Part shown: in pieces, positions 7,368 through 56,271 of the stretch | How positions within the stretch are numbered: the stretch's first letter is position 1 | Layout: every line of letters starts with the position of its first letter | DNA from: an uncultured Anaerolineales bacterium | GTDB taxonomy: Bacteria; Chloroflexota; Anaerolineae; B4-G1 | DNA: 64,000 nucleotides | Direction: 5' to 3' | Assembly (NCBI GenBank): GCA_964421785.1 | Contig: CAYQZG010000001.1 | Coordinates: 73,853 to 137,852 of the forward strand | The notes under the pieces: model-generated | The model's input: only the letters and a program-made list of their open reading frames with translations | What the model was told of the DNA's origin: nothing | Database searches by the model: none | Program-made: the position numbers and the translations under genes

Positions 7368-7640
7368 CTATCTGCGCAATCCAAGTCGCTTGATGATTTC
7401 CTTATAGCGATCGGGGTCTTTGCGACTAAGGTAGTTCAAATGGCGCCGCCGCTGGCCTACCATCTTGATCAACCCTCGGCGGGAGTGTTCGTCGTGCTTG
7501 TGTTCCTTCAAATGCTCCGTCAACTGGCTGATGCGGGTGGTCAGCAACGCGACCTGTACTTCAGGGGAGCCTGTGTCATTCTCTGTACGACCGTACTCCT
7601 CAATGATTGTCTGTTTTTCGCTCTTGCTCAGCGACACCAT
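7368..7640 (-). CDS. rpsO: 30S ribosomal protein S15
   Basis: 90 aa, conserved S15 sequence ([31 protein letters not shown]). Confidence 0.95.
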
Positions 7641-7846
7641 GTCCTCCTTGGCTATCTCTATTCAAACGACATTGGGATTTTACCATATTCCGGCCTTCCG
7701 CGCAAGCTAGGCACCCGAGACTTTCCCGGTGGTAGTTTGTAGGGCTGGCTGAATCGCGGTAGAATGAGTTTTCTATCACGGCGGTCGATTGGCTCGGATT
7801 CTCACCTTAGTGGCCCGCGCTGTTGAGGCAAGGGAGGAGGTACGAT

Positions 7847-37191: not shown

Positions 37192-39894
37192 ATGAGTCAA
37201 AGAGCCAAGCGTCTTCTTATCGGTACGGTCGTTGGTTTTGCGGCACTTGTCCTTCTGCCGATCCTTTCTGGCAATGCCATCACTTTCTATACTGACTGGC
37301 TCTGGTTCGACAGTGTAGGGCATCTGGATGTGCTAAAGACCCGTATCCTCGCTCGAGTTGCGTTGTGGGCAGCCGGTGCTCTAGTTGTCGTTGGTTTTCT
37401 GGCGGTCAATTGGTTCTTCCTACCAAGGCGATTACTCGGGCGCATCCAGTTGAGGATCCAGGGACAAGGACGCGCATCAATCACCATTGGTGCGCGGCTT
37501 TTGACTGTTCTTCTCGGTGTGGTCGGTGCCCTGGTGGCTCTGACCATGGCGTCGGCAGCTGCTGATAAGTGGATGTCGGCCCTAAGGTTCAGTCATGCCG
37601 CATCGTTTGGGCTTAGCGATCCGATCTTTGGCCTCGATGCTGGTTTCTACGTATTCAAGCTCCCCTTCTATCGTTTCCTCGTCAGTTGGATGATGGGCTT
37701 GGTTGTGGTGACACTGATTGGTAATGCTCTGGTCTACGTTTTCGCCGGGCGCATTCGGGAGGCGGAAGCGACTGGGCATCTATCGGTGCTGGGGGCACTC
37801 TTCCTGGTTGGTCAGGCGGTGAGCTATCAACTGCAGCGATGGGCGCTGCTTGAGTCGTCGACTGGCGTCGTCTATGGTGCAGGTTACACCGACGTGAGGG
37901 CTCGCATGCCGCTCTTTTCTCTATTGGCGGGCGTTGTCGTGATCGGGGCCTTGCTGCTGTTGGTTAACATTCGTATTCGCCGATGGAAGCTACTCGTCTT
38001 TGTGGGGATCGCTTGGTTAGCCTTGAGTCTGATCGGGCAGTTCTATCCGGCAGCGGTGCAGCGATTCACGGTCGAACCCAATGAACTGGCATTGGAACGG
38101 GAGTTTATCGAGAACAACATCCGCTTCACCCGTTTTGCCTACGGAATCGATGAGATTGAGGAGTTTGACTATCAGCTCAATGGAGAGCTGACGCCCCAAG
38201 ATCTGGAGGAAAGCGCCGATACGCTTGATAACGTACGCCTATGGGATTGGAAGCCACTGCGGACGACCTATGAGCAGATTCAGGAGATCCGTACCTACTA
38301 TACGTTCGCTGACGTGGATATTGACCGGTATACACTCGACGGTCGGTTGCGCCAGGTCAATCTGGCCGTGCGCGAGCTGGACATCGAGCAGATGCGCGAG
38401 GATGCGCGAACCTGGATCAATCAGCATCTGATCTATACCCACGGCTACGGCCTTTGCATGAGCCCCGTGGGGGAGGTCAGCGAGGAGGGATTACCGCATC
38501 TCCTGGTTCGTAATATCCCACCCGAGACCGAACATCCGCGACTGGAGATCACACGGCCTGAGATCTACTTCGGCGAGAAGACATCCAACTACGTCGTCAT
38601 CAACGCGACCGAGGATGAGTTTGACTATCCCAGCGGCGATCAGAACGTCTACGCGCGCTATGAAGGAGGCGCTGGCGTGCCGGTGGGAGGCTTGCTGCGC
38701 CGTATCGCCTTCGCTCTGCGTTTCAGGAGCTCACCGATTTTGCTCTCGCGTGCGATCAATTCCGAGAGTCGCATTCTCTTTCACCGGGTCCTTTCCGAGC
38801 GAGTGGGGATGGTGGCTCCTATGCTCTGGTTCGATGCTGATCCTTATCCCGTCATCTTGGACGGGCGTGTCGTGTGGCTCTATGACGCCTACACCTGGAG
38901 TGACCGCTTTCCCTATTCGAGACCGACGCGAGGGCTTAACTACATACGCAATAGCGTCAAGATCGCCATTGATGCCTACACTGGCGAGATGGTTTTCTAT
39001 GTCGTCGATCCCGACGATCCGGTGATTCAGACGTATCGGTCCATCTTCCCGGAGCTGTTTACATCCGTTGAGGAGATGGATTCGGCACTCCGTGAGCATT
39101 GGCGCTACCCGGAACAGCTCTTTCGCATCCAGGCAGATCTCTATGGGGCCTACCACATGCAGGATCCGAGAGTCTTCTACAACCAAGAGGATTTGTGGCA
39201 GACGCCGACAGAGGTGCGGGAGTCCGAAAAGACGGAGATGTCCCCCTACTACGTCACGGTTCGCCTGCCCGACTCCGAGCAAGTCGAGTTCATGATGATC
39301 CGTCCCTATGTGCCGGCCGGCAAGCAGAATATGATTGCCTGGTTGTATGCTGATTCGGATGGCTCCGACTATGGACAGCTTGGTGTCTACAAGTTCTCGA
39401 AGGAAGCGTTGATCTACGGCCCGATGCAGGTGGAATCGCGCATCGACCAGGATCCAACCATCTCTCAGCAACTGACGCTGTGGAATCAGCGTGGTTCCTC
39501 GGTCAATCGTGGGAACCTGATTGTGATTCCGATTGACGGGACGTTGCTCTACATTGAGCCGCTCTACCTGCAGGCCGAGGCCAGCCGACTGCCCGAACTC
39601 AAGCGGGTGGTCGTCTCGTACCAGAATCGCGTGGCGATGGAGGGTACTCTTTCGGAGAGCCTGGCTAGGGTGCTTGGGGCCGCCGCGGCGGAGGGGCCCG
39701 ACCAGGTGCCCGAGACGGAGGAGGGACCGCCCCCACCGCCGTCCGGTGACGTGGTAGAGCTTGCACGCTCGGCGCAATCCCACTATGAGGCGGCCCAGCA
39801 ATGCCTGCAGGAAGGCGACTGGGCCTGCTACGGTGATGAGCTAGAGGCTTTGGAGCAGGACCTGCGGGCGTTGGTCAACGCCACTGAGGAATAG
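37192..39894 (+). CDS. UPF0182 family membrane protein
   Basis: 900 aa; N-terminal TM region with YTDWLWFDSVG motif characteristic of UPF0182, large soluble C-terminal region. Confidence 0.75.
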   Translation: MSQRAKRLLIGTVVGFAALVLLPILSGNAITFYTDWLWFDSVGHLDVLKTRILARVALWAAGALVVVGFLAVNWFFLPRRLLGRIQLRIQGQGRASITIGARLLTVLLGVVGALVALTMASAAADKWMSALRFSHAASFGLSDPIFGLDAGFYVFKLPFYRFLVSWMMGLVVVTLIGNALVYVFAGRIREAEATGHLSVLGALFLVGQAVSYQLQRWALLESSTGVVYGAGYTDVRARMPLFSLLAGVVVIGALLLLVNIRIRRWKLLVFVGIAWLALSLIGQFYPAAVQRFTVEPNELALEREFIENNIRFTRFAYGIDEIEEFDYQLNGELTPQDLEESADTLDNVRLWDWKPLRTTYEQIQEIRTYYTFADVDIDRYTLDGRLRQVNLAVRELDIEQMREDARTWINQHLIYTHGYGLCMSPVGEVSEEGLPHLLVRNIPPETEHPRLEITRPEIYFGEKTSNYVVINATEDEFDYPSGDQNVYARYEGGAGVPVGGLLRRIAFALRFRSSPILLSRAINSESRILFHRVLSERVGMVAPMLWFDADPYPVILDGRVVWLYDAYTWSDRFPYSRPTRGLNYIRNSVKIAIDAYTGEMVFYVVDPDDPVIQTYRSIFPELFTSVEEMDSALREHWRYPEQLFRIQADLYGAYHMQDPRVFYNQEDLWQTPTEVRESEKTEMSPYYVTVRLPDSEQVEFMMIRPYVPAGKQNMIAWLYADSDGSDYGQLGVYKFSKEALIYGPMQVESRIDQDPTISQQLTLWNQRGSSVNRGNLIVIPIDGTLLYIEPLYLQAEASRLPELKRVVVSYQNRVAMEGTLSESLARVLGAAAAEGPDQVPETEEGPPPPPSGDVVELARSAQSHYEAAQQCLQEGDWACYGDELEALEQDLRALVNATEE

Positions 39895-42863: not shown

Positions 42864-42943
42864 TTGCTTGAGGGGCCTTGAGAGAGGCGGCAGTTTCGTG
42901 CTCCGCCGCCACAATCGCTTCGATCTGTATCGGAGGGACGGCT

Positions 42944-43360
42944 ATGAGTGGAGAACGATCGGTGACGTTCTTGTCACGGGAGCAGGCGCGCGATTTGGTT
43001 GCTCTGGCCGAAATGGCGAGGCAGGATCTGAGTCGGTTTTCGAGGCGAGAGGTTACCTTTGGTGGAGGGGCTGTACAGCTCCTTGATGAGTGGATTGAGG
43101 ATTATCTCGAGACAGTGCCTGACCCGCCAATGAACGTGCGTCTCTTATGGACTAGTTTCTTAGGCGAGGTATTCCGGCGTTTTCACGAGGGCTGGTGGGC
43201 TTTGCGAGATGGTAAGCTCGTCATTGTGTGCCCAACCGACGGGGGGGACAGGCGTGTGGTGGCGGTGCGAGAGCAGATTGACCGTCGTATTGTCTCCGGG
43301 ATGTCTGAATCGCTGACCTATTTCCACAACGTGATGCGTATTGAACTGAAACTAGGATGA
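42944..43360 (+). CDS. hypothetical protein
   Basis: ORF with genome-typical codon bias, no recognisable family; start uncertain (42878 or 42944). Confidence 0.3.
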   Translation: MSGERSVTFLSREQARDLVALAEMARQDLSRFSRREVTFGGGAVQLLDEWIEDYLETVPDPPMNVRLLWTSFLGEVFRRFHEGWWALRDGKLVIVCPTDGGDRRVVAVREQIDRRIVSGMSESLTYFHNVMRIELKLG

Positions 43361-43455: not shown

Positions 43456-44952
43456 TCAATCGTCAAGCTCTGCGTCGGCAGCTGTCTCGCCTTTGACCAT
43501 GAAGTTGCTTATGTCTTTGTGGAACTCAGGGGCGTCGATATGCTTCTGAACCAGCTCGTGGGTGTCGACGGCGTTTAGCTGGTCGAAGAGGAAGGCGAAT
43601 TTCTCCCGCAATGCGTCTCGGATCTCCTGCCGGATCTCTGATGGGATATTCCAGACTTGCTGCTTGAAGGTTCCAAAGGCGCGCTTGCGGTTGTCATAGA
43701 TGAATTGCTCCTCAGTCTGGTCCTCCTTCCAGCGGTGGGCGTGCTCCTCTCTAAGGTGATCGTAGATGTGCTCACGCAGGTCATCTGGGAATGCTGGGTG
43801 TTCGTAGATTATGTTCTGGAAGCCTGTTGCCAGGTGAATCTCGAGGCAGCCCTCTTCGGGAAACTTGTGGAATGCTTCCTCTGGCAGGGTACTGGCGCCG
43901 TGCTGCACTGCGCCGCCCATGCCATACTCGTCCCGGGCGATGTTTGAAAGGCGCCGCATCACGTCGAAATCAATCTTGACCTGGGCCAGGGAGCCGTCAG
44001 GTAACACCACGCCGCCGTGAGACGTGCCGGTCTGGATGCTGATCTTGCTCAGTCCCACCATCCCCTCGGGCAATGTGTCGTTGTACCCGTCCATATATCC
44101 ACGTAGTTCCTCGGGGGTGCTGTTCTTCCCGCCCACCTCGCCGATCTCACCTCCTACCGAGATGGTGATCCCTTCTGGCTCTAACTCGCGGGTCACCTTG
44201 GTGAACCGCGCCGATAGCTCGAAATTCTCTCGCTGCTGCTCGGCAATCGTTGGCGGGGTCAGGTCGACCAGCGTCGAGGTGTCGATGTCGATATTATAGA
44301 AGCCGGCCTGGATACTCTCTTCGATCAGATCTTCCAGCGCGTCAAGTTCGGTGTCGATGCTCTCGGTGTATTTACCCGGGTTAACCTGGAAGTGATCGCC
44401 CTGGAGGAAGATCGGGCCACGGTGGCCCTCGCGGATTGCCGCGGCGAGTATGACGCTGGCGTACTCGGCCGGCGGCTGGCCCGTGTATCCCATCTCCGAG
44501 CGGGCGATTTCGAAGATCATTGCTCCTACACTGCGGGGCAGTGCAGCCTGGAAGACGGCGCGTGCCATATCGTACGCCATGCCGCGGAGATTCATCGCCG
44601 GGACTGTCCACTGCCCCTTGGTCTCACCTCGACCACGTGCACGATAGAGGTCGTTGATGCTCGCCGGCCGGATGCCTAGCGCTTGGCCCATTTCCCAAAT
44701 CAGCCAGCGGGCCGTGGCCTTCACATCATCGTCTGCGAAGACGGCGTTGTGGATCAGTTCGTCGATCGCCAATCCTTGAAGCTTCGTCTCGTCCTTGATG
44801 ACCACGGTTTCATCCTCTACGCGGACGATCTCCTCAATACTGCTCAGCAGTTCTTGCTTGCTTTGGTGAATCGTCACAATTCCCTCCCTGATAACGCAGC
44901 TGCTTCCTGGTGCTATGGCATCATTTGATATGAGAACGTGTGTTCTCGTCAC
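43456..44952 (-). CDS. class II (metal-dependent) fructose/tagatose-bisphosphate aldolase family protein, long form
   Basis: Collinear resemblance to FbaA-type class II aldolases (TVPAMNLRG, PIFLQGDHF, YNIDIDTS, ISVGGEIGEVGG) with N- and C-terminal extensions. Confidence 0.5.
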   Translation of the reverse strand: MTRTHVLISNDAIAPGSSCVIREGIVTIHQSKQELLSSIEEIVRVEDETVVIKDETKLQGLAIDELIHNAVFADDDVKATARWLIWEMGQALGIRPASINDLYRARGRGETKGQWTVPAMNLRGMAYDMARAVFQAALPRSVGAMIFEIARSEMGYTGQPPAEYASVILAAAIREGHRGPIFLQGDHFQVNPGKYTESIDTELDALEDLIEESIQAGFYNIDIDTSTLVDLTPPTIAEQQRENFELSARFTKVTRELEPEGITISVGGEIGEVGGKNSTPEELRGYMDGYNDTLPEGMVGLSKISIQTGTSHGGVVLPDGSLAQVKIDFDVMRRLSNIARDEYGMGGAVQHGASTLPEEAFHKFPEEGCLEIHLATGFQNIIYEHPAFPDDLREHIYDHLREEHAHRWKEDQTEEQFIYDNRKRAFGTFKQQVWNIPSEIRQEIRDALREKFAFLFDQLNAVDTHELVQKHIDAPEFHKDISNFMVKGETAADAELDD

Positions 44953-44991: not shown

Positions 44992-45489
44992 TCATGCTGT
45001 GCTTCGTAGACGCCGAACGAGGATCAAGAGGAAGGCCAGGCCTCCTGCGAGCGCGGCTCCCCCTAGGATACCAATGCCTGTATCCGGCATGCCATCCGAG
45101 TTGTTATCCTGGTCCGTCTCTGGTGTCTCTAGGCCGAGGGTGGCCGTGGATTCTGGGGTCTCTGGTTCTGGGGTAGCGGTCGGCGGTGGTGGTGGCGGTG
45201 TTGGGGTATCGGTTGGAATTGGCGTGTCTGTTGGAACAGGAGTGTCGGTCGGTGTTGGCGTGACGGCAGCCGTCTCCGTCGCCGACTGCGCAATTGCCAC
45301 CGCTGTGTTCGTCGCAGAGATAGCCTCATTCTGTGACTCGATATCTGCTCTCATTCTCGGTGCTATGAGGAGTGCCCAGGCTACGAAGGCGCCGATACTC
45401 AGCACGAGCAGTCCCCCCAACACCGCGACGAGGATGACGAAACTTCGGTTGGTCCCTTCTTCCTGGATGACTTCTTCTTGGTTCTCCAT
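44992..45489 (-). CDS. small surface protein: N-terminal TM, PT-rich linker, C-terminal sortase-type sorting signal (MPDTG + hydrophobic + RRLR)
   Basis: 165 aa; TPTPTDTPVPTDTPIPTDTP linker; C-terminal tripartite signal read directly. Confidence 0.4.
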   Translation of the reverse strand: MENQEEVIQEEGTNRSFVILVAVLGGLLVLSIGAFVAWALLIAPRMRADIESQNEAISATNTAVAIAQSATETAAVTPTPTDTPVPTDTPIPTDTPTPPPPPPTATPEPETPESTATLGLETPETDQDNNSDGMPDTGIGILGGAALAGGLAFLLILVRRLRSTA

Positions 45490-45542: not shown

Positions 45543-46604
45543 CTAGCGTAGGATCTCCAAGTTGACCAGTGGGACAAAGACAGGTTCGTCTTGGCCGATA
45601 TTCACCTCCGCGCAGTAGGCTCGGGCGCCTGTCGCTATGCGACGCGCATACCGGGGGATGTCGATGACCGTTCCCACCGAGCCCAGGTACGGGGCGCGGA
45701 CAACTCTTACTCGTGCTCCCTGTGTGAGCTCTCCATGCCTTTCCATCTCATCTGCTGATAGCTTCCTGTTCGGCATAGGTATGATGAGCTCTGGTCGCTT
45801 TGAGCCCCACCGCATCTCGGTCTGACCGCTGACTGATACTTCTCTTTCTTCGTTGTCCTTGAGCAAGTTGAAGATGTCCTTCATCATCGGAAGGTCTCCA
45901 AAGCCATCGGTGACAATGATGGGGAAGGGCAGTCGCTCGGCGGTAGGAATCAGCTCTGGAGAAAGACCGCCAGTCACGATGCCTCGCACCTCGACCTCCT
46001 GTGCTCGCGCGAGGGTTTCCCGATCCAAGATTGTACCAGCGACGAGAACGCTGCCGTGGCAGGATGGGTCAATGGCGCGGGCCTGCAATGACTCGCTAGA
46101 TCGCCTCGTTATGCCTTTCAGCGCGCCGACGCTCTCCTCTCCCGAACCCCAAGCACCTTGGATGAGAGCGCCCGTTGTCTCAATGGAGACGACCTGGTCG
46201 TCTCTGATATTCAATACGGTCCCTGGGATGTGGGCGTGTAGCTCAAAAGGCGTGGGTTGAGCCTCGATAAGCGCTCGTCCTCCCCCTGTGGCGGTCATAA
46301 TGCCATCAATGGGGGACTCGACCGAACGGCCGAGAAGGCCAACTCTTCTGGCAATTATATCTCCCCGATGGACTATGTCTCCCAATTTGACCCTCAGGCA
46401 GTCCTCAGCCTCCGACGCCGAAACATCCAACAGGCGCGCAACAGCCACGATTCGAAAGTCGCTGGGCAAGTTGGTACGGGCCACGACCTGCGTGGATTCG
46501 ACGCGGTCACCGGGGTGGACCAGCACTTCCCCTGGTTTTGGCAGAACCCGTTCGCGATGAATTCTCGTCAGAGATGATACCCTAGTTTCGAAAGCGTAGT
46601 ACAT
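45543..46604 (-). CDS. hypothetical protein with barrel-sandwich/lipoyl-like hybrid motif; last gene of 7-gene operon
   Basis: 353 aa; segment VESTQVVARTNLPSD...KLGDIVHRGDIIARRVG resembles biotinyl/lipoyl-like hybrid domains of HlyD/M23 N-termini; no family assigned. Confidence 0.35.
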   Translation of the reverse strand: MYYAFETRVSSLTRIHRERVLPKPGEVLVHPGDRVESTQVVARTNLPSDFRIVAVARLLDVSASEAEDCLRVKLGDIVHRGDIIARRVGLLGRSVESPIDGIMTATGGGRALIEAQPTPFELHAHIPGTVLNIRDDQVVSIETTGALIQGAWGSGEESVGALKGITRRSSESLQARAIDPSCHGSVLVAGTILDRETLARAQEVEVRGIVTGGLSPELIPTAERLPFPIIVTDGFGDLPMMKDIFNLLKDNEEREVSVSGQTEMRWGSKRPELIIPMPNRKLSADEMERHGELTQGARVRVVRAPYLGSVGTVIDIPRYARRIATGARAYCAEVNIGQDEPVFVPLVNLEILR

Positions 46605-46651
46605 TGTTGCTAAGAACCACCTATTCCATGACGGTGTGCCAATCCATCAGC

Positions 46652-48412
46652 TTAACCGCCGACATCATATAACCATTGCCGCATCTGCTCGCGACGTTGT
46701 TCAGGCTCGGCTGGCAGAGACAACGGACGACCTCGGGCATCAATAATGAGGCCAGTCAATCCTCCGCTCACGCGTCGCTTGCCGGTTTTTCCCTGTCCTC
46801 CAAGCCCGACATCGAAACCACGTTTTGGGCGCAGCTCCAGAACTGCCTCTTGCCCAAGAGGTAATGGTAAGACCTCCAAGTCTCCATGACGGACCTCGAT
46901 ATCCAATTCGCTTCCATCGTCGTATGAGACACTGACTCTCAGGATGGTGTCGCCCAGTTTAGCATCTCCTCCGACTGGTGTGACCACAGTAGCAAGATTG
47001 GTGAATACTCCGGCATCCAGGGCCTCCACTGCCGCTAGCGGCTTGACTGCCGCGACATTCCCCAGCGCTGGTGCAAGTCCATATGTATCCAACACGAGCG
47101 TGCTCACGCCGATCGGCTGCAGTGCGTTGAGCACGGCTAGAGCGGCTTGTCCAGGTCGGGGGGCTTGAGTCAGAGGAGCTCCGCTGATGAGAATGGTGTC
47201 GCACAGGGGCGTAAGGTCAGGGTAGGGTTGGGCAGTGCCAGGCTTCCAGCCCGGACGGGCTGTCTCGAGTGTGGTGCATATTGTCGCGCAAGTTAGTGCT
47301 TGTTCCACCCAGAGATCACGGTTCACCTGAGGGATGCTAGTCGGGTGCATTCTCTTGTTGATCAGCAATGCCTGGACTTGGTGATAGGGTATCGATTCAG
47401 GAAGCCAGCGGGCGATGGCCTCAAAGCCTTCTTCCTCTAGCAGACGCTCCCCTCCGAAGGCCGCGCCCAGGCCACCGTGGATAGTCGTGTAAAGCTGTTC
47501 GTCGAAGACGGCAGCTACTGTGGTATTGGCCCCTCCAGCGTCGATGCCCAGAACGCCCCTGGTTGGATCGCCCAGGTGCCATAGATACTGGATCAGTTGG
47601 CCAAATGCCTGCGCAGTCGGGGCAATGCGTACCGGGCTCCAGTCTGCCAGGGTAGCAAAGCCTGGAAGCTGTCGCATCTTCTGCTGTCTGAAGATGTTCT
47701 GGAGTTCCTGTTGGGCATCCTGTAGTTGCTCGACTTCGAGTATCGGGCGAACGTTGTCGACGACACGCAGCTTCGTCTCGTCACCGACGATTTCGGTAAC
47801 CTGCTGGCGCAGTCGTGAGTTGCCTGCGTAGAGAAGGGTGGGACGCTTTCTACGATCCATCATCGCGCACGCCAGTGTCGCGGCTTTCACAGCGTCCAGC
47901 ACAGGTCGCTCGGCACCCCCGTCAATTCCGCCGGTAAGGCAGATGACATCCGGTGTGGCGGCGCGGAGCAAACGAACGCGGTCTTCGTCGGTTAAGGTGA
48001 TTTCCTGGCCTTCGTCCAGAACAGCTATCACCCGAGAGTAGGTACCCGCAGCTGCGCGTTTGGCGCTCGCGATGCTGAGGCTCTCCACCAGACCGCTGAG
48101 CACGATTCCTAGCGGTTCGCTGGCGCTGACGGTGGCCGTAAAGGCGTCTACACCTCGTCGGCTCGTTGCCTGAGGGGAGATGAGATCGCCCGTCTCATCG
48201 AAGAATTTTCGGCCCGTTATTCGCGAAATGCGCTCCACAGCATGCCGTATACCATCTATGACGGTGGCTGGGGATGCCCCGAACGTAGTGGGCGCTTCTC
48301 CAGATGCTACAAAGCGATACTCGCCACCTATCCGATCAAGCAACATAGCTTTGGTCATCACGGTGCCGCAGTCGACGACGAGAATCGAACCGATACTTTC
48401 GTTTGCCACCAT
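46652..48412 (-). CDS. ASKHA (actin/Hsp70/sugar kinase) superfamily ATPase-like protein (MutL/EutA/FtsA-PilM-like)
   Basis: 586 aa; two phosphate-binding-type motifs at the start of each half (ILVVDCGTVMTKAML and LGIDAGGANTTVAAV), characteristic duplicated actin fold. Confidence 0.45.
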   Translation of the reverse strand: MVANESIGSILVVDCGTVMTKAMLLDRIGGEYRFVASGEAPTTFGASPATVIDGIRHAVERISRITGRKFFDETGDLISPQATSRRGVDAFTATVSASEPLGIVLSGLVESLSIASAKRAAAGTYSRVIAVLDEGQEITLTDEDRVRLLRAATPDVICLTGGIDGGAERPVLDAVKAATLACAMMDRRKRPTLLYAGNSRLRQQVTEIVGDETKLRVVDNVRPILEVEQLQDAQQELQNIFRQQKMRQLPGFATLADWSPVRIAPTAQAFGQLIQYLWHLGDPTRGVLGIDAGGANTTVAAVFDEQLYTTIHGGLGAAFGGERLLEEEGFEAIARWLPESIPYHQVQALLINKRMHPTSIPQVNRDLWVEQALTCATICTTLETARPGWKPGTAQPYPDLTPLCDTILISGAPLTQAPRPGQAALAVLNALQPIGVSTLVLDTYGLAPALGNVAAVKPLAAVEALDAGVFTNLATVVTPVGGDAKLGDTILRVSVSYDDGSELDIEVRHGDLEVLPLPLGQEAVLELRPKRGFDVGLGGQGKTGKRRVSGGLTGLIIDARGRPLSLPAEPEQRREQMRQWLYDVGG

Positions 48413-48423
48413 CGTGTTTCTCG

Positions 48424-49083
48424 CTAGAGTCCCATTGCCCTGAGGGCCAGATCGATGAAGTGCTCCATACGACCAACGAATATCGAAAGCGAAGCTGTGA
48501 GTGCTCCGGCAAAGGCCACGCCGAAGGTGAAGATCAGGAACACGCGGCCAACCCAGGCCGCTCCATCTACGATACTTCGCCAGACGAAGCTCCCTGCATG
48601 ACCTTCAGGCTTTGTGAAGGTGAAGGCCAGCAATGTGCATACCGTCCCTACGACGATCATCAGGCCATCTAGTGGGCCGAAGCGGTAGGATTTCAGGGAG
48701 GCTGGGCTAAGTGCCTGTCCCGTTGCTTCCACTTGAGGGGCGAGCGTTCCCAGCAGGGCCCCGGCGAGGGTGACGGCCGTTCCGACGCCGATGAGATAGG
48801 CGATGGAGAAGTTCCCAACAAATGCTTGTCTAGGGAATCCTTTGAAAAGCAATAGGATGCCGAGCACGAGCGGTATCAAGACGGCGGATGGGTTGGATAT
48901 CAGCTTTGGGAACGCCATCCGGATCAGTACCTCGCGCACGGTCACGCCAAGGGAATAGCCAACCACTACGCCGACAAAGATGTGTAGGGCCAGTCGATAG
49001 AGCGGGTTGTCGCCTACCAGATAGCTCAATATGAGCAGCATTAGTACTGCCCCCAGGATGGTGCCGACCAACTCGGGTATCAT
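48424..49083 (-). CDS. integral membrane protein, hypothetical
   Basis: 219 aa, about 6 TM helices; 4-nt overlap with upstream gene. Confidence 0.4.
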   Translation of the reverse strand: MIPELVGTILGAVLMLLILSYLVGDNPLYRLALHIFVGVVVGYSLGVTVREVLIRMAFPKLISNPSAVLIPLVLGILLLFKGFPRQAFVGNFSIAYLIGVGTAVTLAGALLGTLAPQVEATGQALSPASLKSYRFGPLDGLMIVVGTVCTLLAFTFTKPEGHAGSFVWRSIVDGAAWVGRVFLIFTFGVAFAGALTASLSIFVGRMEHFIDLALRAMGL

Positions 49084-51275
49084 GTCTCTTCCCCTTTGGT
49101 CCTCCCCAAAGCATGGACGAGGGCGCCAACGATCATCAGTACGACAATGGCGATGTGACCTGCTGCTAGCGCGTCGAGCCGCTGTGTGGCACTACCGACT
49201 GTTCCGCGGCGGGCCTCGTAAGCAGCGGCTCCTTTGAGGCCGTGAATGGCTCCTTCCAACTGCCCGGCGTTGGCGTCAAGGTAGGGGCTCGCAACAGGTT
49301 CCAAAGCTGCACTGCCAACGGCGACCACCGGTAGTTGGTCTCCATACCGCGCATTGGCTTGTTCAATCCAGAGGCGGAGCGGCGTCGGCCTACTGGTCAA
49401 TATGAGAAGCAGCCTAGGTGATCCGTCAGCAGTGCCCAATAACTGGGAGACGGCAGTTGCTGTTCCTGGTCGATAGCCGATGAACGTGTATTGGTCTCTG
49501 GAGTCGGCGATCTTGGCCATCATGGCCCGCGCCACCAGTGGACCATCGGGGCGGGTACTGGCGATTGAGATCTGTGCTCCGCGCTCAAGCACGTGCGTCA
49601 GAACTGGCTGTGCCACAGCACTAAGCTCGTCGGCTTCCGGTGGCCCATAGTCAAAGGCTACGAGGACGTGATCACCCACGTCAAGCTCATCGACAACACG
49701 ATGGAGATTTGTGACTCCTGGAGTCGTCAGTGGTTGGGTTAGAATGGTCCCCATGCCCGTCACCAGGGGGGCCAGGAGCATACTTAACACAGCGAGAATC
49801 AGGAAGCCCGCTACTAGCCAACGTTCAGCCAAGCTCGCAGTGTCGGTTGCTTTCCTTCTTACCCCACGTTTGGGCCTAATCGTTGGTTGAATCGCTGGTT
49901 GACCTAGCAGGCTCTGAAGCAGCTCGGCTCGGGCTAGGTTCGCCTCGCTGGTCTGAGGCGCTGGTGGACCTGCGAAAGTGTCGGGCGCGCCAATAGCGTG
50001 GGCCGCGGGAATCAGACCGCGCAATCCTCTCAACAGCCCTTCGGTCTCTAGGGGCCCTTGGACAGGCTCTTCGCCCTCATCCTGGCTTGGTCTCAGTTCC
50101 TGCAGCCAGTCGGGAATATCTGCACGTTCCAGATCCGCACTCCAATCCTCTTCTGTGACGTCTAGCTCCGCTGGGAACGGCGAAGCATCGTCATCCTCCT
50201 GGGTTGGCGTCATAAGCTCGGTCAACCAATCCGGCGTTTCGATAGTCTCAGGAGGTGCCTCTGTGAAGGGGGAAACAGGTTCTTCAGACGTTTCCTCTGG
50301 CTGAGCTTCGGCCTCTTGAAGCCAGGCGGGAATCTCAGCCGGTTCAGGAGGGGGTATCTCTGCTGCTGCCTCCGTCCGTTCAGGTTCATCAGGCACTAGA
50401 AGTTCTTTTCCTGCTGTAAGCTCTTCAGAAGGCTGTGGGCCCGCGCTGGCTTGTGCCTCCTTGAGCCAGTCGGGGATTTCGATGGCCGCGGATTCTGCAT
50501 CGCCGATTTCCGATTCCCTTTCTGCAGCTTCGCTCAACTCCGACGGCGCTGTTGTTTCTTCATCCAAAGGTGAGATATCTTGCAACCACCTTGGCATTTC
50601 CTCCAGATCAGGTTCCTCAGTCTCGGATCGGTCCGTCTCCCTTTCGTCGCCAAAGGGCTCCTGCATCCTCGGTGGTTCGTCCTCTGGAATGGGGGATGTT
50701 TCCTCGCTGATTGGGCCCAAGTCACGAAGCCAGTCCGGGATCTCGGCTGGTTCTGGAGTTGCTTCTTCGGGAGTTCTATCTGGCGGTGAAGCCTCCATGC
50801 TGGTCTGACGTGGGGACTCTTCGCTGATCGATCCCAGGTCACTCAGCCAATCGGGGATGTTGGCTGGCTCCAATGGCTCTTCATCATCTTCGATATGCTC
50901 GTCGTCTTCGACGATCTCAGGTTGTTGGTTTGTAGACTCTCGGAGCTCATCCAGCCAGTCTTCTGATGTCGATTCCTCTTGCTCGATCGATTCGACGGTG
51001 GGCTTCTCCTGTTCTCCTGCCGTCTCATCCAATGGAATAGTTGGCAGCGAGAACCCTTTGATCGGCCTTGTCTTCTCCTCTGATTCCTCCTCTTCAGGTT
51101 CAGATGACATTGGCACGAGGCGCGCATTACATTTCTGGCAGTAGACGTTGCCGACGGCGTTGATGGTGTCACACATGGGGCAGCGCATGCCGGTACTTGG
51201 CAGTGGCTCGCCGCACTCATTGCAGAAGCGGCTGCCTTTTCGATTGGATGTTCCGCAGTTGGGGCAATAGATCAT
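49080..51275 (-). CDS. double zinc-ribbon membrane protein with acidic region carrying 7 tandem 'IPDWL' repeats and a C-terminal extracytoplasmic domain
   Basis: N-terminus CPNCG...CNECG and CPMCD...CQKCN; repeats ANIPDWLSDLG / AEIPDWLRDLG / EEMPRWLQDIS / IEIPDWLKEAQ / AEIPAWLQEAE / IETPDWLTELM / ADIPDWLQELR; TM helix then about 250-aa domain and terminal TM. Confidence 0.55.
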   Translation of the reverse strand: MIYCPNCGTSNRKGSRFCNECGEPLPSTGMRCPMCDTINAVGNVYCQKCNARLVPMSSEPEEEESEEKTRPIKGFSLPTIPLDETAGEQEKPTVESIEQEESTSEDWLDELRESTNQQPEIVEDDEHIEDDEEPLEPANIPDWLSDLGSISEESPRQTSMEASPPDRTPEEATPEPAEIPDWLRDLGPISEETSPIPEDEPPRMQEPFGDERETDRSETEEPDLEEMPRWLQDISPLDEETTAPSELSEAAERESEIGDAESAAIEIPDWLKEAQASAGPQPSEELTAGKELLVPDEPERTEAAAEIPPPEPAEIPAWLQEAEAQPEETSEEPVSPFTEAPPETIETPDWLTELMTPTQEDDDASPFPAELDVTEEDWSADLERADIPDWLQELRPSQDEGEEPVQGPLETEGLLRGLRGLIPAAHAIGAPDTFAGPPAPQTSEANLARAELLQSLLGQPAIQPTIRPKRGVRRKATDTASLAERWLVAGFLILAVLSMLLAPLVTGMGTILTQPLTTPGVTNLHRVVDELDVGDHVLVAFDYGPPEADELSAVAQPVLTHVLERGAQISIASTRPDGPLVARAMMAKIADSRDQYTFIGYRPGTATAVSQLLGTADGSPRLLLILTSRPTPLRLWIEQANARYGDQLPVVAVGSAALEPVASPYLDANAGQLEGAIHGLKGAAAYEARRGTVGSATQRLDALAAGHIAIVVLMIVGALVHALGRTKGEET

Positions 51276-51285
51276 CAGATCACCA

Positions 51286-51909
51286 TCAGAACTCGCTGTG
51301 GGGACGCTCGATACCCAGCAGGACTCTCACGCCCGTGATCACCGTGCCAAGCGCGACACCAAGGAGTAGGCCTCGGATCCCAGCCATCCCAGGCACGTGA
51401 ATCAGCCAGTGGCGAACTTCGCTCAGCCACTCGAAGCCTAGGAGGGGAGTCGTGCCCAGGAGAGACAAAGCCACAACCAAGACGAAGAGTAGGGAAGCTG
51501 GGGTCGGTCGATGTCGCAGCAATCGAACAGCAGACAGCGTCAGGGTGAAGACCACAAGCGCGGCAAGCGATCCCCCGAGCGGGGTGATGACGTAATCTAG
51601 CATCGCCTGTGTCATCTCACCGGAGGGGCCATAGAAGAGTGGGGGAATCCAGGATAGCAGGGCGGCCAAGAGCAGGACCAAACTGTGCAATCGCTCTTCT
51701 CCGGAGCCAAGTATCCGCTGACCATGGACTCGGAGAATGTTGAATATACCGAGGATGAGGGCGAAGGCACCGATGATCACGGCCCACTCGATGAGTTGAT
51801 CGCGGCAGGTGGACAGTATCGTTCCCGGAAACAGGTAGCCAGCCAGCGTGAGAAGCCCACTGACGGTTGCGAAGAAGATGGGTATCCACTTCCTAGTGAT
51901 ACGTCTCAT
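51286..51909 (-). CDS. integral membrane protein, hypothetical
   Basis: 207 aa, multi-TM. Confidence 0.4.
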   Translation of the reverse strand: MRRITRKWIPIFFATVSGLLTLAGYLFPGTILSTCRDQLIEWAVIIGAFALILGIFNILRVHGQRILGSGEERLHSLVLLLAALLSWIPPLFYGPSGEMTQAMLDYVITPLGGSLAALVVFTLTLSAVRLLRHRPTPASLLFVLVVALSLLGTTPLLGFEWLSEVRHWLIHVPGMAGIRGLLLGVALGTVITGVRVLLGIERPHSEF

Positions 51910-51954
51910 GGCCTTTGCCTTCCGTGGATCAACTGCTGTGAGACTTGACGCGCA

Positions 51955-52713
51955 CTAGCTTCCGATGAGGGCCAGAACTGCTGTTCCCAGGATAGCTAGT
52001 GCCAAGATGAATCTTAGGATGTCCTCGCTGATCAAGCTCGTTATATATTCCTTCTTCTCGGTGATCTGGGCCCCGGCGGCGTACAGTTCCTCTCCCACAG
52101 CGAGACGGTCGACGGCGGCGTACAGGGCGCCGGTCGCCTGCGCGGTATCGACGGCAGCCATCTTTGGCTTGCTGCGCCGATCACTCATGTCTGCAATAAG
52201 GGATACTTCAGATCCAAAAGCACCTGCCAGTATGTTGGCGGTCGCATCCTCTGGTGCTCCTACAGGGATGGCTCCGGCAGAGTATGCGAGGGAAGAAGGG
52301 GCGACAAAGCGAACTTGGCTCGCATCGTAGAACTCGGCAATCTGCCTACGCTCATAGGCTCGGCGCAGCACGTCTTGAGCCAAAGGGAGAAGCGTGGCAT
52401 CGCCAACTGTGATGATTGGCGCAACGTCGTACGAAACCGCTGCGTCGACCAATCCTTCCAACACCTGAAGTCCTGCTAAGGAGGAGATTGAATTCTCGCT
52501 GCTCAGTCCTCCGCTTCCCAGAGCGATGTGGAGCGGCCTACCGCTCTCGGCCGCTCGCCCAAGCTCGTCCTGCAGATCCTTGAAGGCAGGGATCTGCCGT
52601 AGGTGGGGATTCTCCTCTCTTCGACGATGAAGAATCGTGAGCACGATCAACACGAGCGCGCTGAGAAGCAGGAAAACAAGGGCCCACGCTGTAGGACTAA
52701 GGAAATCACTCAT
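51955..52713 (-). CDS. bitopic/membrane-anchored hypothetical protein
   Basis: 252 aa, N- and C-terminal TM helices flanking soluble domain. Confidence 0.4.
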   Translation of the reverse strand: MSDFLSPTAWALVFLLLSALVLIVLTILHRRREENPHLRQIPAFKDLQDELGRAAESGRPLHIALGSGGLSSENSISSLAGLQVLEGLVDAAVSYDVAPIITVGDATLLPLAQDVLRRAYERRQIAEFYDASQVRFVAPSSLAYSAGAIPVGAPEDATANILAGAFGSEVSLIADMSDRRSKPKMAAVDTAQATGALYAAVDRLAVGEELYAAGAQITEKKEYITSLISEDILRFILALAILGTAVLALIGS

Positions 52714-52984
52714 CGCTGCTATGTCCTCGGATCAGTCGGTTTCTCAAGTGCGCCCGCACTTCGGAGTTACCCCATAGATGTGCGGCCTGCTCAATCTGCT
52801 TGTTAGATACATCTCTCACCAGTGGCTCTAGAGCTAAGAGAGCCTGATGGCCCAAGAAACCAAAGGTATCGACAATCTCGAGAAGAGACAAAGCCACTGA
52901 AGATAGGCCATTTGACTCGATCAACTCCGCCCATCGATCAGCTTGTGTCTGTTTTTCTTGCTTACCATTCACATTTAGATTCAA
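52706..52984 (-). CDS. small hypothetical protein, first gene of operon (coding status uncertain)
   Basis: 92 aa; 8-nt overlap (ATGAGTGA) with next gene suggests translational coupling, but GC3 is low. Confidence 0.25.
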   Translation of the reverse strand: MNLNVNGKQEKQTQADRWAELIESNGLSSVALSLLEIVDTFGFLGHQALLALEPLVRDVSNKQIEQAAHLWGNSEVRAHLRNRLIRGHSSDE

Positions 52985-53109
52985 GGTGAGTATATTCGAG
53001 ATATCGAAGTGCCAGCCATGTAGTCTCAGTATAGCACGATTTCGGGGGGGTGTAAAGTGCGCTGGAAGATTGTCTCTGCGTGTGGTTTGTCAATTCTTGC
53101 TTCTATGCT

Positions 53110-54288
53110 ATGATATCCATCGATACTAAGACTATGACTGAGGAATCTGATATCTCTCTTCCGTCTCAAGAGCCTCGCCACTGTCCTGTCTGTGGCATTC
53201 GAGTGGCTGCCAAGGCATCAGAGTGTCTGATGTGTGGGGCTTCTCTTGTAGAGGAAGAGCCTGAGCAAGACGAGGAGAAAGAACGTACGATACCGAGCTG
53301 GGTTGGGTCTGTTGCTGTGGTTGTGTTGGCCCTAGTCATCCTGGGTGCCGGCGGTTTTGGTCTCTATACGATGCTGGCCGTCGAACCCGAGCCAGAGCCG
53401 GTGGTGGTAGCAGTCACCCCCTCTCCAACATCCACGCCCGTAGCGAGCCCCAAGCCTAGTGACACGCCAGTGCCTACTTCCACTCCCACGCCTCTCCCCC
53501 CACGCGCTTATGATGTGCGAGAGGGGGAGACGTTGAGCGATATCGCCGATCTGTATGCGTTGACGGTTGAAGAAATCCTGGCTTTGAATCCCGATGTGGA
53601 TCCGGAGCTCATCCAGCCGGGACAGGTGTTGCTTATTCCAGCGCCCACGCCGACAGCGGACACCTCGCTTTCCGGTGAAGGGGATGGCTTGGAGTCGGCG
53701 CCAGGTGAGTTTGTGGTTCACGTCGTCAGTTCAGGCGAGACGTTGAGCTCTATTGCCGAGGAATACGGTGTGCCTGTGTCCATCATCCGTACTGCCAATG
53801 ACATATCGCCGGATGATGAGACGATCCGCGCTGAGCAATCCCTCGTCATTCCCTTGAGCACCCATACTCCGACTTCAACACCGACCGTCGATCCAAATGC
53901 CACGATGACACCGGTGCCATCCTACACATCACCTCCGCTGCTCTACCCGCCCGACGGAGCGGTCTTGACAGATGTAGTTCCTGTGCTGTTGCAGTGGGCT
54001 TCGATAAGCGTACTCGAGGGTGATGAGTGGTATGAGCTCTATGTGTGGCAACCGGCGGATGACGTGGTGTCGAGTACTGTCCGCACGCGCGCCACAGCTT
54101 GGCGTGTGCCGTTTGACTTGCTACAGAAGGCCGATGGCGATGCGCCGGAGTTCCATTGGCGGGTCCAAGTGGTGCGGGAATCCGCAGATCAGGTCTATGA
54201 GGAGGCTGGTGCTCCCAGTGCAGCGTATTCGTTTGTGTGGCAAGGGCCGGCGCCGACTCAGCTGACTCCTACGATATCCGCCCCTTAG
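53110..54288 (+). CDS. zinc-ribbon + TM + two LysM domains + C-terminal domain envelope protein
   Basis: CPVCG...CLMCG zinc ribbon; TM (VAVVVLALVILGAGGFGL); PT linkers; two LysM motifs (YDVREGETLSDIADLY..., HVVSSGETLSSIAEEY...). Confidence 0.6.
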   Translation: MISIDTKTMTEESDISLPSQEPRHCPVCGIRVAAKASECLMCGASLVEEEPEQDEEKERTIPSWVGSVAVVVLALVILGAGGFGLYTMLAVEPEPEPVVVAVTPSPTSTPVASPKPSDTPVPTSTPTPLPPRAYDVREGETLSDIADLYALTVEEILALNPDVDPELIQPGQVLLIPAPTPTADTSLSGEGDGLESAPGEFVVHVVSSGETLSSIAEEYGVPVSIIRTANDISPDDETIRAEQSLVIPLSTHTPTSTPTVDPNATMTPVPSYTSPPLLYPPDGAVLTDVVPVLLQWASISVLEGDEWYELYVWQPADDVVSSTVRTRATAWRVPFDLLQKADGDAPEFHWRVQVVRESADQVYEEAGAPSAAYSFVWQGPAPTQLTPTISAP

Positions 54289-54500: not shown

Positions 54501-55322
54501 TTGGACACTGATCGACAACAACGCTCCGTGAATCCCGACCGTTATGATGAAGCTTATTTCCTGAGCGCTTGTGAAGGGTACGAAGAGTTCGTATCCAGTG
54601 AGGGGCGGTGCCTGTCACACCGATTGGAGCAGGCTTTCGCTGCGGCGGAGGTGACCCCCGGCATGAAGGTGCTGGATATTGGCTGTGGTCGGGGGGAGAT
54701 TCTCCGTCGTTGCCTCCGCCTCGGAGCGGAGGCCTATGGCATCGACTATTCGGCTGTTGCTGCTCGAATGGCGTTTGAACTCGCCAAGGATGGTGAAGAG
54801 GCGAGGATCAGCTTGGCCGATGCCAAGATCCTGCCATTTCGGAGTGGTTCTTTTGATAGAGTATTGATGTTTGACTTGGTTGAGCACCTGTACCCATGGG
54901 AGCTGCGTCAAGCTTTGTCAGAGGCGCGACGTGTATTGCGATCCAAAGGGCGGTTGATCGTTCACACCGCTCCTAATGTCTGGTATGATCGGTATGCCTA
55001 TCCTGTGGTGCGGTGGGTGCGGATTCTGATGGGAGAGGGTCACAACTATCCTCGAGACCCACGTGCCATCATCCCTGTCAACCTAGATGTTCACGTCAAT
55101 GAGCAGAGCGCTTTAAGTCTGCAGCGCGCGCTGAGCGAGGCTGATTTCCGTGCCCGCGTGTGGTTAGACACGCCCCCACAAGATCGAGATGAGAGTTTCT
55201 TGTTCCAGCTTGCTCGCCACGTCTTGTTCAATTGGCCCCCTTTTCGCTGGTTCTTTGAACGGGAAGTGTTTGCGGTGGCGAGTGTCCACGATAAGAGAGA
55301 TGAAAGACCGCCGTACGGTTGA
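54501..55322 (+). CDS. class I SAM-dependent methyltransferase
   Basis: Motif I VLDIGCGRGE, motif II/III (RVLMFDLVEHL, GRLIVHT). Confidence 0.8.
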   Translation: MDTDRQQRSVNPDRYDEAYFLSACEGYEEFVSSEGRCLSHRLEQAFAAAEVTPGMKVLDIGCGRGEILRRCLRLGAEAYGIDYSAVAARMAFELAKDGEEARISLADAKILPFRSGSFDRVLMFDLVEHLYPWELRQALSEARRVLRSKGRLIVHTAPNVWYDRYAYPVVRWVRILMGEGHNYPRDPRAIIPVNLDVHVNEQSALSLQRALSEADFRARVWLDTPPQDRDESFLFQLARHVLFNWPPFRWFFEREVFAVASVHDKRDERPPYG

Positions 55323-56271
55323 TGAACTATCTATAGAGGAGCTGGAGGAGCTTCTGCGCCTCCGCAAACGACAGGAGCGTTTGCGGCGTCTGCGCGAGCG
55401 TGACAAGGAGGCAGCTTCCCTGGATCCGCTGGCCCAAGCAAGACCAGGCGGCCCTTCTAGTCCCTCGCTACCCAAGGCACACCGACGGTTCCAGGACACC
55501 GGCGCTACGATGCAGTATCGGGCTCGTACCGTGTCCGACCCGGCCGAGGGCAGATGCGCGGAGGGAGCTCCAGAGCAGCGTAGTTTCCGCATTCACTGGA
55601 GCTGGCTGCGCGATAAGGGCTTGCTTGTGGTTGAGTTAGGGGTATTGACAGCGTTGATCCTTGTCCTGGTCGGTTCGCTGGCAACCTTGCGCGAGATCAA
55701 CCAAACATCCAGTCGCGCACAGGTGTTGCCGACCCTGACACCAACCCCGCCGATTCAGGTGGTGTTGCCGGGCGGTCATACCCCACCGGACTCGCCAGGG
55801 GGGCCTGCTCCGGCGGAGATCCCGGCTCACCTGCAGGATCTGGTGGGTGCTATTACGCCATTGCCCGTTCCAACAGCTGGGCCGGAGCAGGCGACTCGTA
55901 TTCAGATCCCGGTTATCGGCGTGGATGCGCCCGTGGTGGAGGGGGATGACTGGGAGACGCTCAAGCGGGGGGCGGGGCATCACCTCGGTAGTGCAAATCC
56001 TGGCGAACGAGGCAACTGTGTTATATCAGCTCATAATGATATCTTCGGCGAGATCTTCCGTGATTTGCCGGACCTTAGTTTGGGTGACGAGGTAATCGTT
56101 CACACAGCAAGCCGGCCTTATCGCTACGTTGTCACGCAGAAGCGCATCATTGAGCCGACCGAGGTAGATGTGATGGAGCCTACATCTTCTTCAATTCTGA
56201 CGCTTGTCTCGTGTTATCCGTACGGTATTGATACGCATCGTATTGTTGTCGTTGGAGAGTTGAAACCATAA
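55300..56271 (+). CDS. sortase (class E-like transpeptidase) with N-terminal membrane anchor
   Basis: Catalytic His region (ISAHNDIFGEIF), TLXTC motif (LTLVSCYP), conserved Arg downstream; N-terminal TM. Start overlaps methyltransferase stop by 23 nt. Confidence 0.75.
   Translation: MKDRRTVDELSIEELEELLRLRKRQERLRRLRERDKEAASLDPLAQARPGGPSSPSLPKAHRRFQDTGATMQYRARTVSDPAEGRCAEGAPEQRSFRIHWSWLRDKGLLVVELGVLTALILVLVGSLATLREINQTSSRAQVLPTLTPTPPIQVVLPGGHTPPDSPGGPAPAEIPAHLQDLVGAITPLPVPTAGPEQATRIQIPVIGVDAPVVEGDDWETLKRGAGHHLGSANPGERGNCVISAHNDIFGEIFRDLPDLSLGDEVIVHTASRPYRYVVTQKRIIEPTEVDVMEPTSSSILTLVSCYPYGIDTHRIVVVGELKP

Follow-up and report, generated by a model that had tools for sequence, protein, structure and literature searches.

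What kind of machinery is encoded by seven closely packed minus-strand genes of an uncultured Anaerolineales bacterium is the question raised by the 64,000-nucleotide (nt) stretch of DNA analysed here (the window; contig CAYQZG010000001.1 of assembly GCA_964421785.1, positions 73,853 to 137,852). The genes, numbered g1 to g7 from the 5′ end of the cluster, encode a small protein (g1), four membrane proteins (g2 to g5), an ATPase of the ASKHA superfamily (g6) and its partner protein (g7), and in some lineages an eighth gene, g8, follows. An original prediction, made from the nucleotide sequence alone, had described an operon for an actin-like ATPase, a barrel-sandwich protein, four membrane proteins and a zinc (Zn)-ribbon protein with IPDWL repeats, and had proposed it as a candidate envelope system. 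All seven open reading frames (ORFs) were found at the predicted coordinates, the domain calls proved right, and the set matches no named kind of system, being assignable to none that is known. Comparative sequence analysis indicates that the seven families are one system, organized in two modules and extending beyond Chloroflexota.

The evidence for this comes from gene order. A scan of Chloroflexota, using one genome per GTDB species, gave 59 loci, the closest of which belong to metagenome-assembled genomes (MAGs) labelled Anaerolineales with g6 identities of 78-81%. By tblastn with the window proteins, wherever the contig reaches far enough, the order g2-g3-g4-g5-g6-g7 is kept through Anaerolineae, Thermoflexia, Ardenticatenales and MAGs labelled Chloroflexia, down to approximately 30% identity, while the flanking genes change between loci. 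Distant homologues, traced from the g7-like gene of a MAG labelled Symbiobacterium, reveal a second arrangement (type 2; loci L060, L061/L062 and L063), where a small protein with two transmembrane (TM) segments is followed by g1, g6, g7, g2, g3, the C-terminal part of g4 (g4C) and g5. All seven window proteins find their type-2 homologues by blastp, with E-values of 5.6e-5 (g1), 2e-22 (g2), 3e-25 (g3), 2e-18 (g4C), 5e-20 (g5), 7e-94 (g6) and 7e-58 (g7). Conservation of the gene neighbourhood was the main check proposed for the original prediction, and it passes strongly: some 40 Chloroflexota loci keep the g2-g7 order, and distant lineages have the complete set of seven in a permuted order. 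That a single set of genes recurs in two orders while its flanks change is strong evidence that the seven families work together.

The same association emerges from metagenomes. A scan seeded with type-2 g7 sequences confirmed more than 565 stretches, and 80 loci were examined, with guanine-cytosine (GC) contents of 31-70%. The ATPase gene lies directly 5′ of g7 in 49 of the 65 loci with enough flanking sequence, and where g6 and the sequence on both sides are available the membrane block is present in 16 of 26. When 1151 ORFs were clustered without supervision, the same families emerged as the recurrent ones (g7 in 71 loci, g6 in 48, g1 in 28, the g2 family in 26, g5 in 23, g4C in 21 and g3 in 17, besides the small 2-TM protein in 16), and no enzyme, mutase or division gene family was recurrent among these ORFs.

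Residues 10-465 of the ATPase g6 match the Pfam family MutL (PF13941) end to end (7.9e-64, 216.5 bits, profile positions 1-446 of 450), and the protein has the attributes of the ASKHA superfamily: two RNase-H-like lobes, the phosphate-1 (DxGxT..K) and phosphate-2 (DxGG..T) motifs and the adenosine motif. The two ASKHA signatures picked out in the original prediction were read correctly, LVVDCGTVMTKA being phosphate 1 and GIDAGGANTT phosphate 2. In an alignment of 18 homologues reaching down to 30% identity, phosphate 1 (D14, G16, T20), phosphate 2 (D291, G293) and G411 are conserved in all lineages, with D14, G16, T20 and G293 invariant, and as far as sequence can tell the ATP-binding motifs of g6 are intact. 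The AlphaFold2 (AF2) model is confident, with a predicted local distance difference test (pLDDT) of 89.7 and a predicted TM-score of 0.91, and includes an inserted flavodoxin-like domain containing the GGxDGG motif common to MutL/GlmL. Beyond the Pfam model there is a subfamily-specific C-terminal beta-domain and helix of about 120 residues (~466-586; nt 46652-47014, minus strand), for which a Pfam scan of the isolated domain gave no match; a PDB search with g6 found no close solved relative. This C-terminal domain carries GGLxGLIIDARGRPL, the most strongly conserved motif outside the nucleotide site, which is invariant from Chloroflexota to the type-2 lineages.

Membership of the MutL family brings in a metabolic explanation, and the original prediction had named assignment of g6 to a metabolic ASKHA family as a result that would count against it. 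The family assignment is indeed confident, and g6 shares with GlmL/MutL (PF13941; NF040745, TIGR01319) the ASKHA core and the GGxDGG-containing insert. It could be a chaperone of the GlmL/MutL type whose client, a coenzyme-B12-dependent mutase, has its genes elsewhere; g7 would then provide a swivelling domain, and the linkage to membrane genes would be incidental. The scores are far under the NCBIfam cut-offs, however (97.2 against 475 bits for the GlmL equivalog NF040745, 79.7 against 204 bits for TIGR01319), and none of about 140 loci shows an adjoining mutase gene; where Pfam annotation was precomputed, among the scanned window ORFs and among the recurrent neighbour families, neither a mutase nor a B12-domain gene borders g6. 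Rfam detected no riboswitch, cobalamin or other, in the window or in six loci. Unlike GlmL, g6 is never beside glmS or glmE in these loci; in nearly all cases its companion is g7, and commonly the four membrane proteins are there as well, its constant neighbours, whose retention in two gene orders is not explained by incidental linkage. The extra C-terminal domain with its DARGRPL motif is a further difference from GlmL/MutL. A B12-binding role for the inserted domain was considered and is not supported, as receiver (REC) domains score equally and no DxHxxG is seen in the sequence. The metabolic-reactivase assignment is therefore not supported, and we regard it as highly improbable. Public annotations for these proteins read either "hypothetical protein" or "glutamate mutase L"; the latter looks misleading for this g6 subfamily and should not be propagated.

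FtsA and PilM are actin-fold proteins that dock on short peptides of their partners, such as the FtsZ tail, FtsN and the N-terminus of PilN. The nearest folds of g6 include these peptide-docking ASKHA proteins together with ATP-driven activators and chaperones. The ATPase may resemble FtsA and PilM in fold and in partner logic, without membership of their sequence families, and unlike in FtsA and PilM systems it is not co-conserved with any pilus, secretin, FtsZ or divisome genes.

The partner protein g7 consists of a barrel-sandwich hybrid domain (residues ~8-165), a swivelling beta/beta/alpha domain (~170-260) with an invariant TEGFG motif, and a KOW/SH3-like barrel (~295-353), all three visible in an AF2 model with pLDDT 86.7. 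Foldseek with full-length g7 returned matches at the level of single domains only, with TM-scores of at most 0.25 and no full-length analogue, and a PDB profile search gave KOW-level matches only. The barrel-sandwich hybrid is of the type found at the N-terminus of RnfC and NqrA, where full-length TM-scores do not exceed 0.16; unlike these proteins g7 has no iron-sulfur, flavin mononucleotide or SLBB domains, and Pfam scans of g3, g5 and g7 gave no Rnf-Nqr, FMN_bind or Fer4 matches. The middle domain has the swivelling fold of the mobile domain of phosphoenolpyruvate-utilising enzymes, but no phospho-accepting histidine is invariant or near-invariant in 67 close or 18 distant homologues, and without a conserved histidine a role as phosphohistidine carrier was rejected. 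Single domains are what g7 has in common with RnfC/NqrA, phosphoenolpyruvate-utilising enzymes and NusG/Spt5, and the catalytic or cofactor-binding features of these proteins are absent from it. In the DdrA-DdrB reactivase of diol/glycerol dehydratase, DdrA is an ASKHA ATPase with an inserted swivelling domain; here that domain sits on the separate g7, flanked by the barrel-sandwich and KOW domains, and unlike in DdrA-DdrB there is neither a DdrB-like subunit nor a B12 enzyme nearby. The presence in g7 of a domain that DdrA holds in cis fits an ATP-driven remodelling unit.

Among 1.84 billion sequences clustered at 50% identity, the g7 profile matches 3219 cluster representatives if the limit is set at E<1e-3, and 954 if it is set at E<1e-30. 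Some members stand in unusual settings. In a MAG labelled Symbiobacterium thermophilum (L059:6422-9961) a bare g6-g7 pair lies directly 3′ of an ATP-binding cassette (ABC) ATPase and two FtsX/MacB-like permease ORFs and 5′ of IMP dehydrogenase, and this g7 has just eight detectable relatives in a database of 5.8 billion proteins. Elsewhere g7-like genes without g6 (L087:7676-9707, L101:9965-12007, L120:10001-11964) are followed by a conserved protein of approximately 280-300 residues with a signal peptide, which is seen at nine loci, has no Pfam match and may be an outer-membrane protein.

The smallest family, g1, has a hydrophobic or amphipathic core (WA..I...GLS..AL.LLE....FGFLGSQALL...PL) followed by a C-terminal helix; it occurs at 21 Chloroflexota and 28 type-2 loci and belongs to no Pfam or NCBIfam family. 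For the membrane proteins, the earlier TM assignments agree with TM prediction, which gives an N-terminal TM and a C-terminal hydrophobic segment in g2, about six TMs each in g3 and g5, and two in g4. In g2 a domain of approximately 195 residues lies between the two segments, and the protein is a distant member of DUF6754 (Pfam PF20539; 4e-32). The type-2 DUF6754 proteins match the Pfam model at 1e-111 to 1e-119 and often occur in several copies, and many of them have a signal peptide and an ectodomain ahead of the first TM, which argues for a cytoplasmic location of the DUF6754 domain, in agreement with the positive-inside rule. A weak fn3 match was found in the one type-2 ectodomain protein scanned with Pfam. 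Type-2 clusters often have two to four DUF6754 paralogues (L106, L117, L095, L091, L104), and the ectodomain of most of these contains a conserved 'DTPNDAGGSITVSW' motif.

The proteins g3, with invariant R129, R179, G184 and G188, and g5, with a conserved N-terminal motif SYL(V/L)GDNPLYRLA.H.(F/L)VG...GY, fall into no Pfam family across 20 members of each (scattered single-member noise only). Profile-profile comparison detected no homology between g2 and g4C or between g3 and g5. Sequence and profile searches of the PDB with g2, g4C, g3 and g5 gave no informative relative, g4C has no Pfam match either, and NCBIfam holds no family for g3, g5 or g4C.

Two 6-TM proteins, a protein with an extracytoplasmic domain and a cytoplasmic ATPase make up the generic layout of a primary transporter, and it is conceivable that a permease or translocase is built from g3 and g5 together with g2 and g4C, for which g6 and g7 would serve as the cytoplasmic energising or gating unit of an ASKHA-coupled import or export. 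The g6-g7 pair beside an ABC ATPase and FtsX-like permeases in the MAG labelled Symbiobacterium also points in this direction. Yet neither g3 nor g5 matches a transporter family in the 20 members scanned of each or has a relative in the PDB, no substrate-binding-protein family was detected in g4C, no riboswitch or regulator points to a substrate, and we know of no precedent for ASKHA-powered transport. The absence of conserved acidic intramembrane residues in g3 and g5 argues neither for nor against transport. On balance we consider a transporter unlikely.

The fourth membrane protein, g4, is a composite in which a double Zn ribbon and an acidic disordered linker (28% Asp+Glu) with E-[IMT]-P-x-W-L motifs precede the TM-g4C-TM part. 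The IPDWL-type repeat described in the original prediction is real: 7 of the 10 six-frame matches to [ILVMT]PxW[LM] in the window fall within 250 residues of g4, and a 15-residue peptide with the PxWL motif is PAEIPDWLRDLGPIS. Chloroflexota orthologues keep the Zn ribbon and both TMs, while the number of PxW[LMI] copies varies from 2 to 24; E-[ILV]-P-[DE]-W-L-x-[ED]-[LI] is the consensus drawn from 373 instances. Type-2 clusters keep the g4C part alone (2e-18), and the Zn-ribbon and motif part is a Chloroflexota-specific add-on. Loci of the Ktedonobacteria type (L055, L056) have three genes only, a TM-less Zn-ribbon protein with 7-8 motifs followed by g6 and g7. These motif proteins end in KRGFFDAIRDFF or RGFLSTILDWFS, and their C-terminal helix is the most amphipathic window of the L055 protein (rank 1 of 530), while in L056 it is one of the five highest; it looks like a membrane-targeting helix of the MinD/FtsA kind. 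The most plausible reading of the array is that of a multivalent tether holding g6 and g7 at the membrane, because it is the sole partner kept beside them in Ktedonobacteria, because the TMs are there replaced by an amphipathic helix, and because the copy number varies freely around a fixed core motif.

Some g4 genes depart from the usual form. In an Ardenticatenales MAG (L058:604-9261) the g4 frame has 2885 residues, about four times the usual length, with 24 PxW[LMI] motifs before the two TMs, and is either one gene or a merged call. In L004, L028, L030, L041 and L044 g4 is split (for example L030:5581-7557 and 7611-9314) into a Zn-ribbon/motif ORF without TM and an ORF with the remaining motifs and the TMs; these may be real splits or frameshifts of MAG assembly.

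The g4 motif resembles the tail found at the C-terminus of FtsZ, DYLDIPAFLRKQAD. Within the tail sequence D-I-P-A-F-L-R, residues I374 and L378 bind FtsA/ZipA (PMC4117426). Their counterparts in the g4 motif are [ILV] at position -1 and L at position +3. The likeness is a lead and not a result. With it comes the possibility of a cytoskeletal or divisome element, where g6 would polymerise on the membrane like FtsA, MreB or ParM, the g4 array would mimic the FtsZ tail and link to or compete with the division machinery, and the membrane proteins and the wall-anchored g8 would connect it with growth of the septal or lateral wall in filamentous Chloroflexota. A Pfam scan of g6 finds neither FtsA/SHS2_FTSA nor PilM at E<=1, though, and in structural comparison FtsA and PilM score only slightly above BcrAD activators, acetone carboxylase and sugar kinases. 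No division genes are co-conserved. The FtsZ tail has a single motif, unlike the multiple copies of g4, and since lineages differing widely in GC content have the core system without the array, the ancestral function cannot be accounted for by likeness to the FtsZ tail. We consider a cytoskeletal or divisome role improbable, to about the same degree as transport.

The reading that we prefer, to which we would give somewhat less than an even chance, is a multi-protein membrane-associated system in which g6 and g7 act as an ATP-driven switch docked on a membrane complex of g2 to g5. Its cytoplasmic module would contain g1, the ATPase g6 and g7 as an obligate partner, and its membrane module g2 with a cytoplasmic domain between two TMs, the unrelated 6-TM proteins g3 and g5, and g4C, predicted to be extracytoplasmic between two TMs. 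ASKHA proteins that act on partner complexes include FtsA, PilM, Hsp70 and the DdrA-type reactivases. In a comparable manner g6 may bind and hydrolyse ATP as a conformational switch or chaperone-type engine, acting together with g7 at the cytoplasmic face of the g2-g5 complex. We infer that these proteins associate physically, and the change would then be passed outwards to g4C and, in the form found outside Chloroflexota, also to the FN3-like ectodomains of the DUF6754 paralogues, with an envelope component as the putative target. In Chloroflexota, g4 would have gained the double Zn ribbon and acidic linker as a docking array that concentrates g6 and g7 at the membrane, the motif-binding protein presumably being one of these two, and g8, predicted to be anchored by sortase, probably serves in Anaerolineae as a client or wall-side partner.

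Several observations weigh against this reading. Pairs of g6 and g7 without an adjacent membrane block occur in L056, L059, L064 and 10 of the 26 type-2 loci, and in 16 of 65 loci g7 stands without g6 beside it. It follows that the modules can be separated and that further clients of the ATPase may exist. The similarity of g6 to FtsA and PilM is only marginally above that to metabolic ASKHA enzymes, and the resemblance of g4 to the FtsZ tail is at the level of a motif only. As regards the envelope, divisome or pilus-platform role suggested in the original prediction, it is not established, as the sortase and LysM flanks are not conserved and only g8 is, in Anaerolineae-type loci only. We prefer to treat "actin-like" and "envelope" as hypotheses rather than labels.

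A broader and more doubtful proposal is that this is an unrecognised class of bacterial membrane machine, distributed over many uncultured phyla, in which a MutL-family ATPase and a three-domain adaptor drive or gate a four-protein complex acting on the envelope. Chloroflexota would have recruited to it an FtsZ-tail-like array and a wall-anchored sortase substrate, which could tie the machine to septation or wall growth in these filamentous monoderms. If true, the MutL/GlmL branch of the actin-fold superfamily, whose own mechanism is to our knowledge not established, would gain a role outside B12 enzymology. Even apart from mechanism, the approximately 950 g7 clusters (50% identity, E<1e-30) and more than 565 metagenome stretches over a GC range of 31-70% represent a large and widespread piece of unexplained conserved bacterial cell biology. 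Five of the eight families lack a Pfam model, another is a DUF and a further one goes under the annotation "glutamate mutase L", and a literature search found nothing relevant on DUF6754, PF13941, TIGR01319/glutamate mutase L or GlmL/actin-like proteins in Chloroflexi. Many conserved hypothetical operons exist, which tempers the significance of any one of them. Wastewater, sediments and soils are rich in Chloroflexota, of whose envelope and division biology little is understood, and in this phylum the repeated E-I-P-D-W-L motif offers a testable handle.

The cluster is tightly coupled, as the original prediction had claimed from its junctions (Table 1). The g1 and g2 frames overlap by 8 nt (ATGAGTGA) and g4 and g5 by 4 nt (ATGA), and the gaps elsewhere are 45 nt (g2/g3), 10 nt (g3/g4), 11 nt (g5/g6) and 47 nt (g6/g7). 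Orthologous loci repeat the 4-nt g4/g5 overlap and an 8- or 4-nt g1/g2 overlap (for example L001 9315/9312, L003 7702/7699 and L005 5691/5684), and g6 and g7 overlap or abut in distant lineages too. The co-directional run holds for g1 to g7, but the earlier placement of its end at 45543 does not, since g8 and an aldolase-like gene (g9) follow at 53 and 39 nt. The aldolase-like gene was rejected as a member of the system, being adjacent only in the closest relatives. The site 5′ of g1 is the sole promoter-like one facing the operon, and besides the terminator-like site 3′ of the aldolase-like gene there are two further minus-strand matches, at 52695-52683 within g2 and 43609-43595 within the aldolase gene, both short 5-bp stems. 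The pattern is compatible with a single transcript without proving it; both scans are close to shuffle expectation (for promoters, 7 sites against 3.8+/-2.3 in shuffles) and count as weak evidence. An anti-phage defence system was also considered and rejected, with no PADLOC family matched by any of the eight proteins at E<=0.01 and with housekeeping-like synteny in agreement.

Table 1. Positions in the window of the gene cluster, the parts of g4 and adjoining features.
Feature	Position (nt)	Strand	Description
g1	52706-52984	-	92 residues, TTG start; first gene of the cluster in both gene orders
g2	51955-52713	-	252 residues, DUF6754 membrane protein
g3	51286-51909	-	207 residues, polytopic membrane protein, ~6 TM, unnamed family
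g4	49080-51275	-	731-residue composite: double Zn ribbon, motif linker, TM1, g4C, TM2
g4 double Zn ribbon	51111-51275	-	residues 1-55; Pfam Zn_Ribbon_1/DZR
g4 acidic disordered linker	50091-50864	-	residues 138-395; seven E-[IMT]-P-x-W-L motifs
g4 TM1	49761-49817	-	residues 487-505
g4C	49173-49760	-	extracytoplasmic domain, ~195 residues (predicted)
g4 TM2	49116-49172	-	residues 702-720
g5	48424-49083	-	219 residues, polytopic membrane protein, ~6 TM, unnamed family
g6	46652-48412	-	586 residues, MutL/GlmL-family ASKHA ATPase
g7	45543-46604	-	353 residues, three-domain partner protein
g8	44992-45489	-	lineage-specific accessory gene (Anaerolineae/Ardenticatenales-type loci), predicted sortase substrate
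Aldolase-like gene (g9)	43456-44952	-	follows g8
Promoter-like site	53028..53056	-	TTTACA-17-TATACT with extended TG; ~45 nt 5′ of g1; consensus match
Terminator-like site	43399-43385	-	3′ of the aldolase-like gene
Sortase gene	55189-56271		PF04203, 3.7e-32

The accessory gene g8 lies directly 3′ of g7 in 42 loci (for example L001:12925-13431), a position that it always has in loci of the Anaerolineae type. Its product begins with an acidic tail that contains an NRTF motif, continues with a TM and a Thr/Pro-rich linker, and has at its C-terminus a sorting signal (MPDTG-GIGILGGAALAGGLAFLLILV-RRLRSTA) that follows the sortase-substrate pattern, and most of the 42 orthologues have x-P-x-T-G followed by a hydrophobic stretch and an RR tail, with divergent motifs in a few. 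It is predicted to be a sortase substrate with an additional N-terminal membrane anchor, and if processed by sortase it would be anchored at both ends, in the membrane and in the wall. The sortase (PF04203) and LysM genes reported to flank the cluster were both confirmed in the window, but this flank is a feature of close relatives only: beyond the closest of them the cluster is no longer accompanied by genes for LysM, methyltransferase, sortase, aldolase and M50 peptidase.

Three neighbouring proteins deserve mention. A UPF0182-family membrane protein of 900 residues (5e-285), a large conserved protein without known function, is encoded on the plus strand at 37192-39894, approximately 5.6 kb from the cluster. 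A 160-residue ORF without a Pfam family (42878-43360, plus strand) is convergent to the cluster; here the aldolase gene lies between, and in at least 10 loci (L004, L009, L013, L015, L020, L032, L046, L057 and others) the ORF directly follows g8. The LysM protein, divergent from the cluster (53080-54288, plus strand), has an N-terminus like that of g4, in which a Zn ribbon is combined with an acidic stretch and with "IPSWV" immediately ahead of the TM, followed by two LysM domains on the outside.

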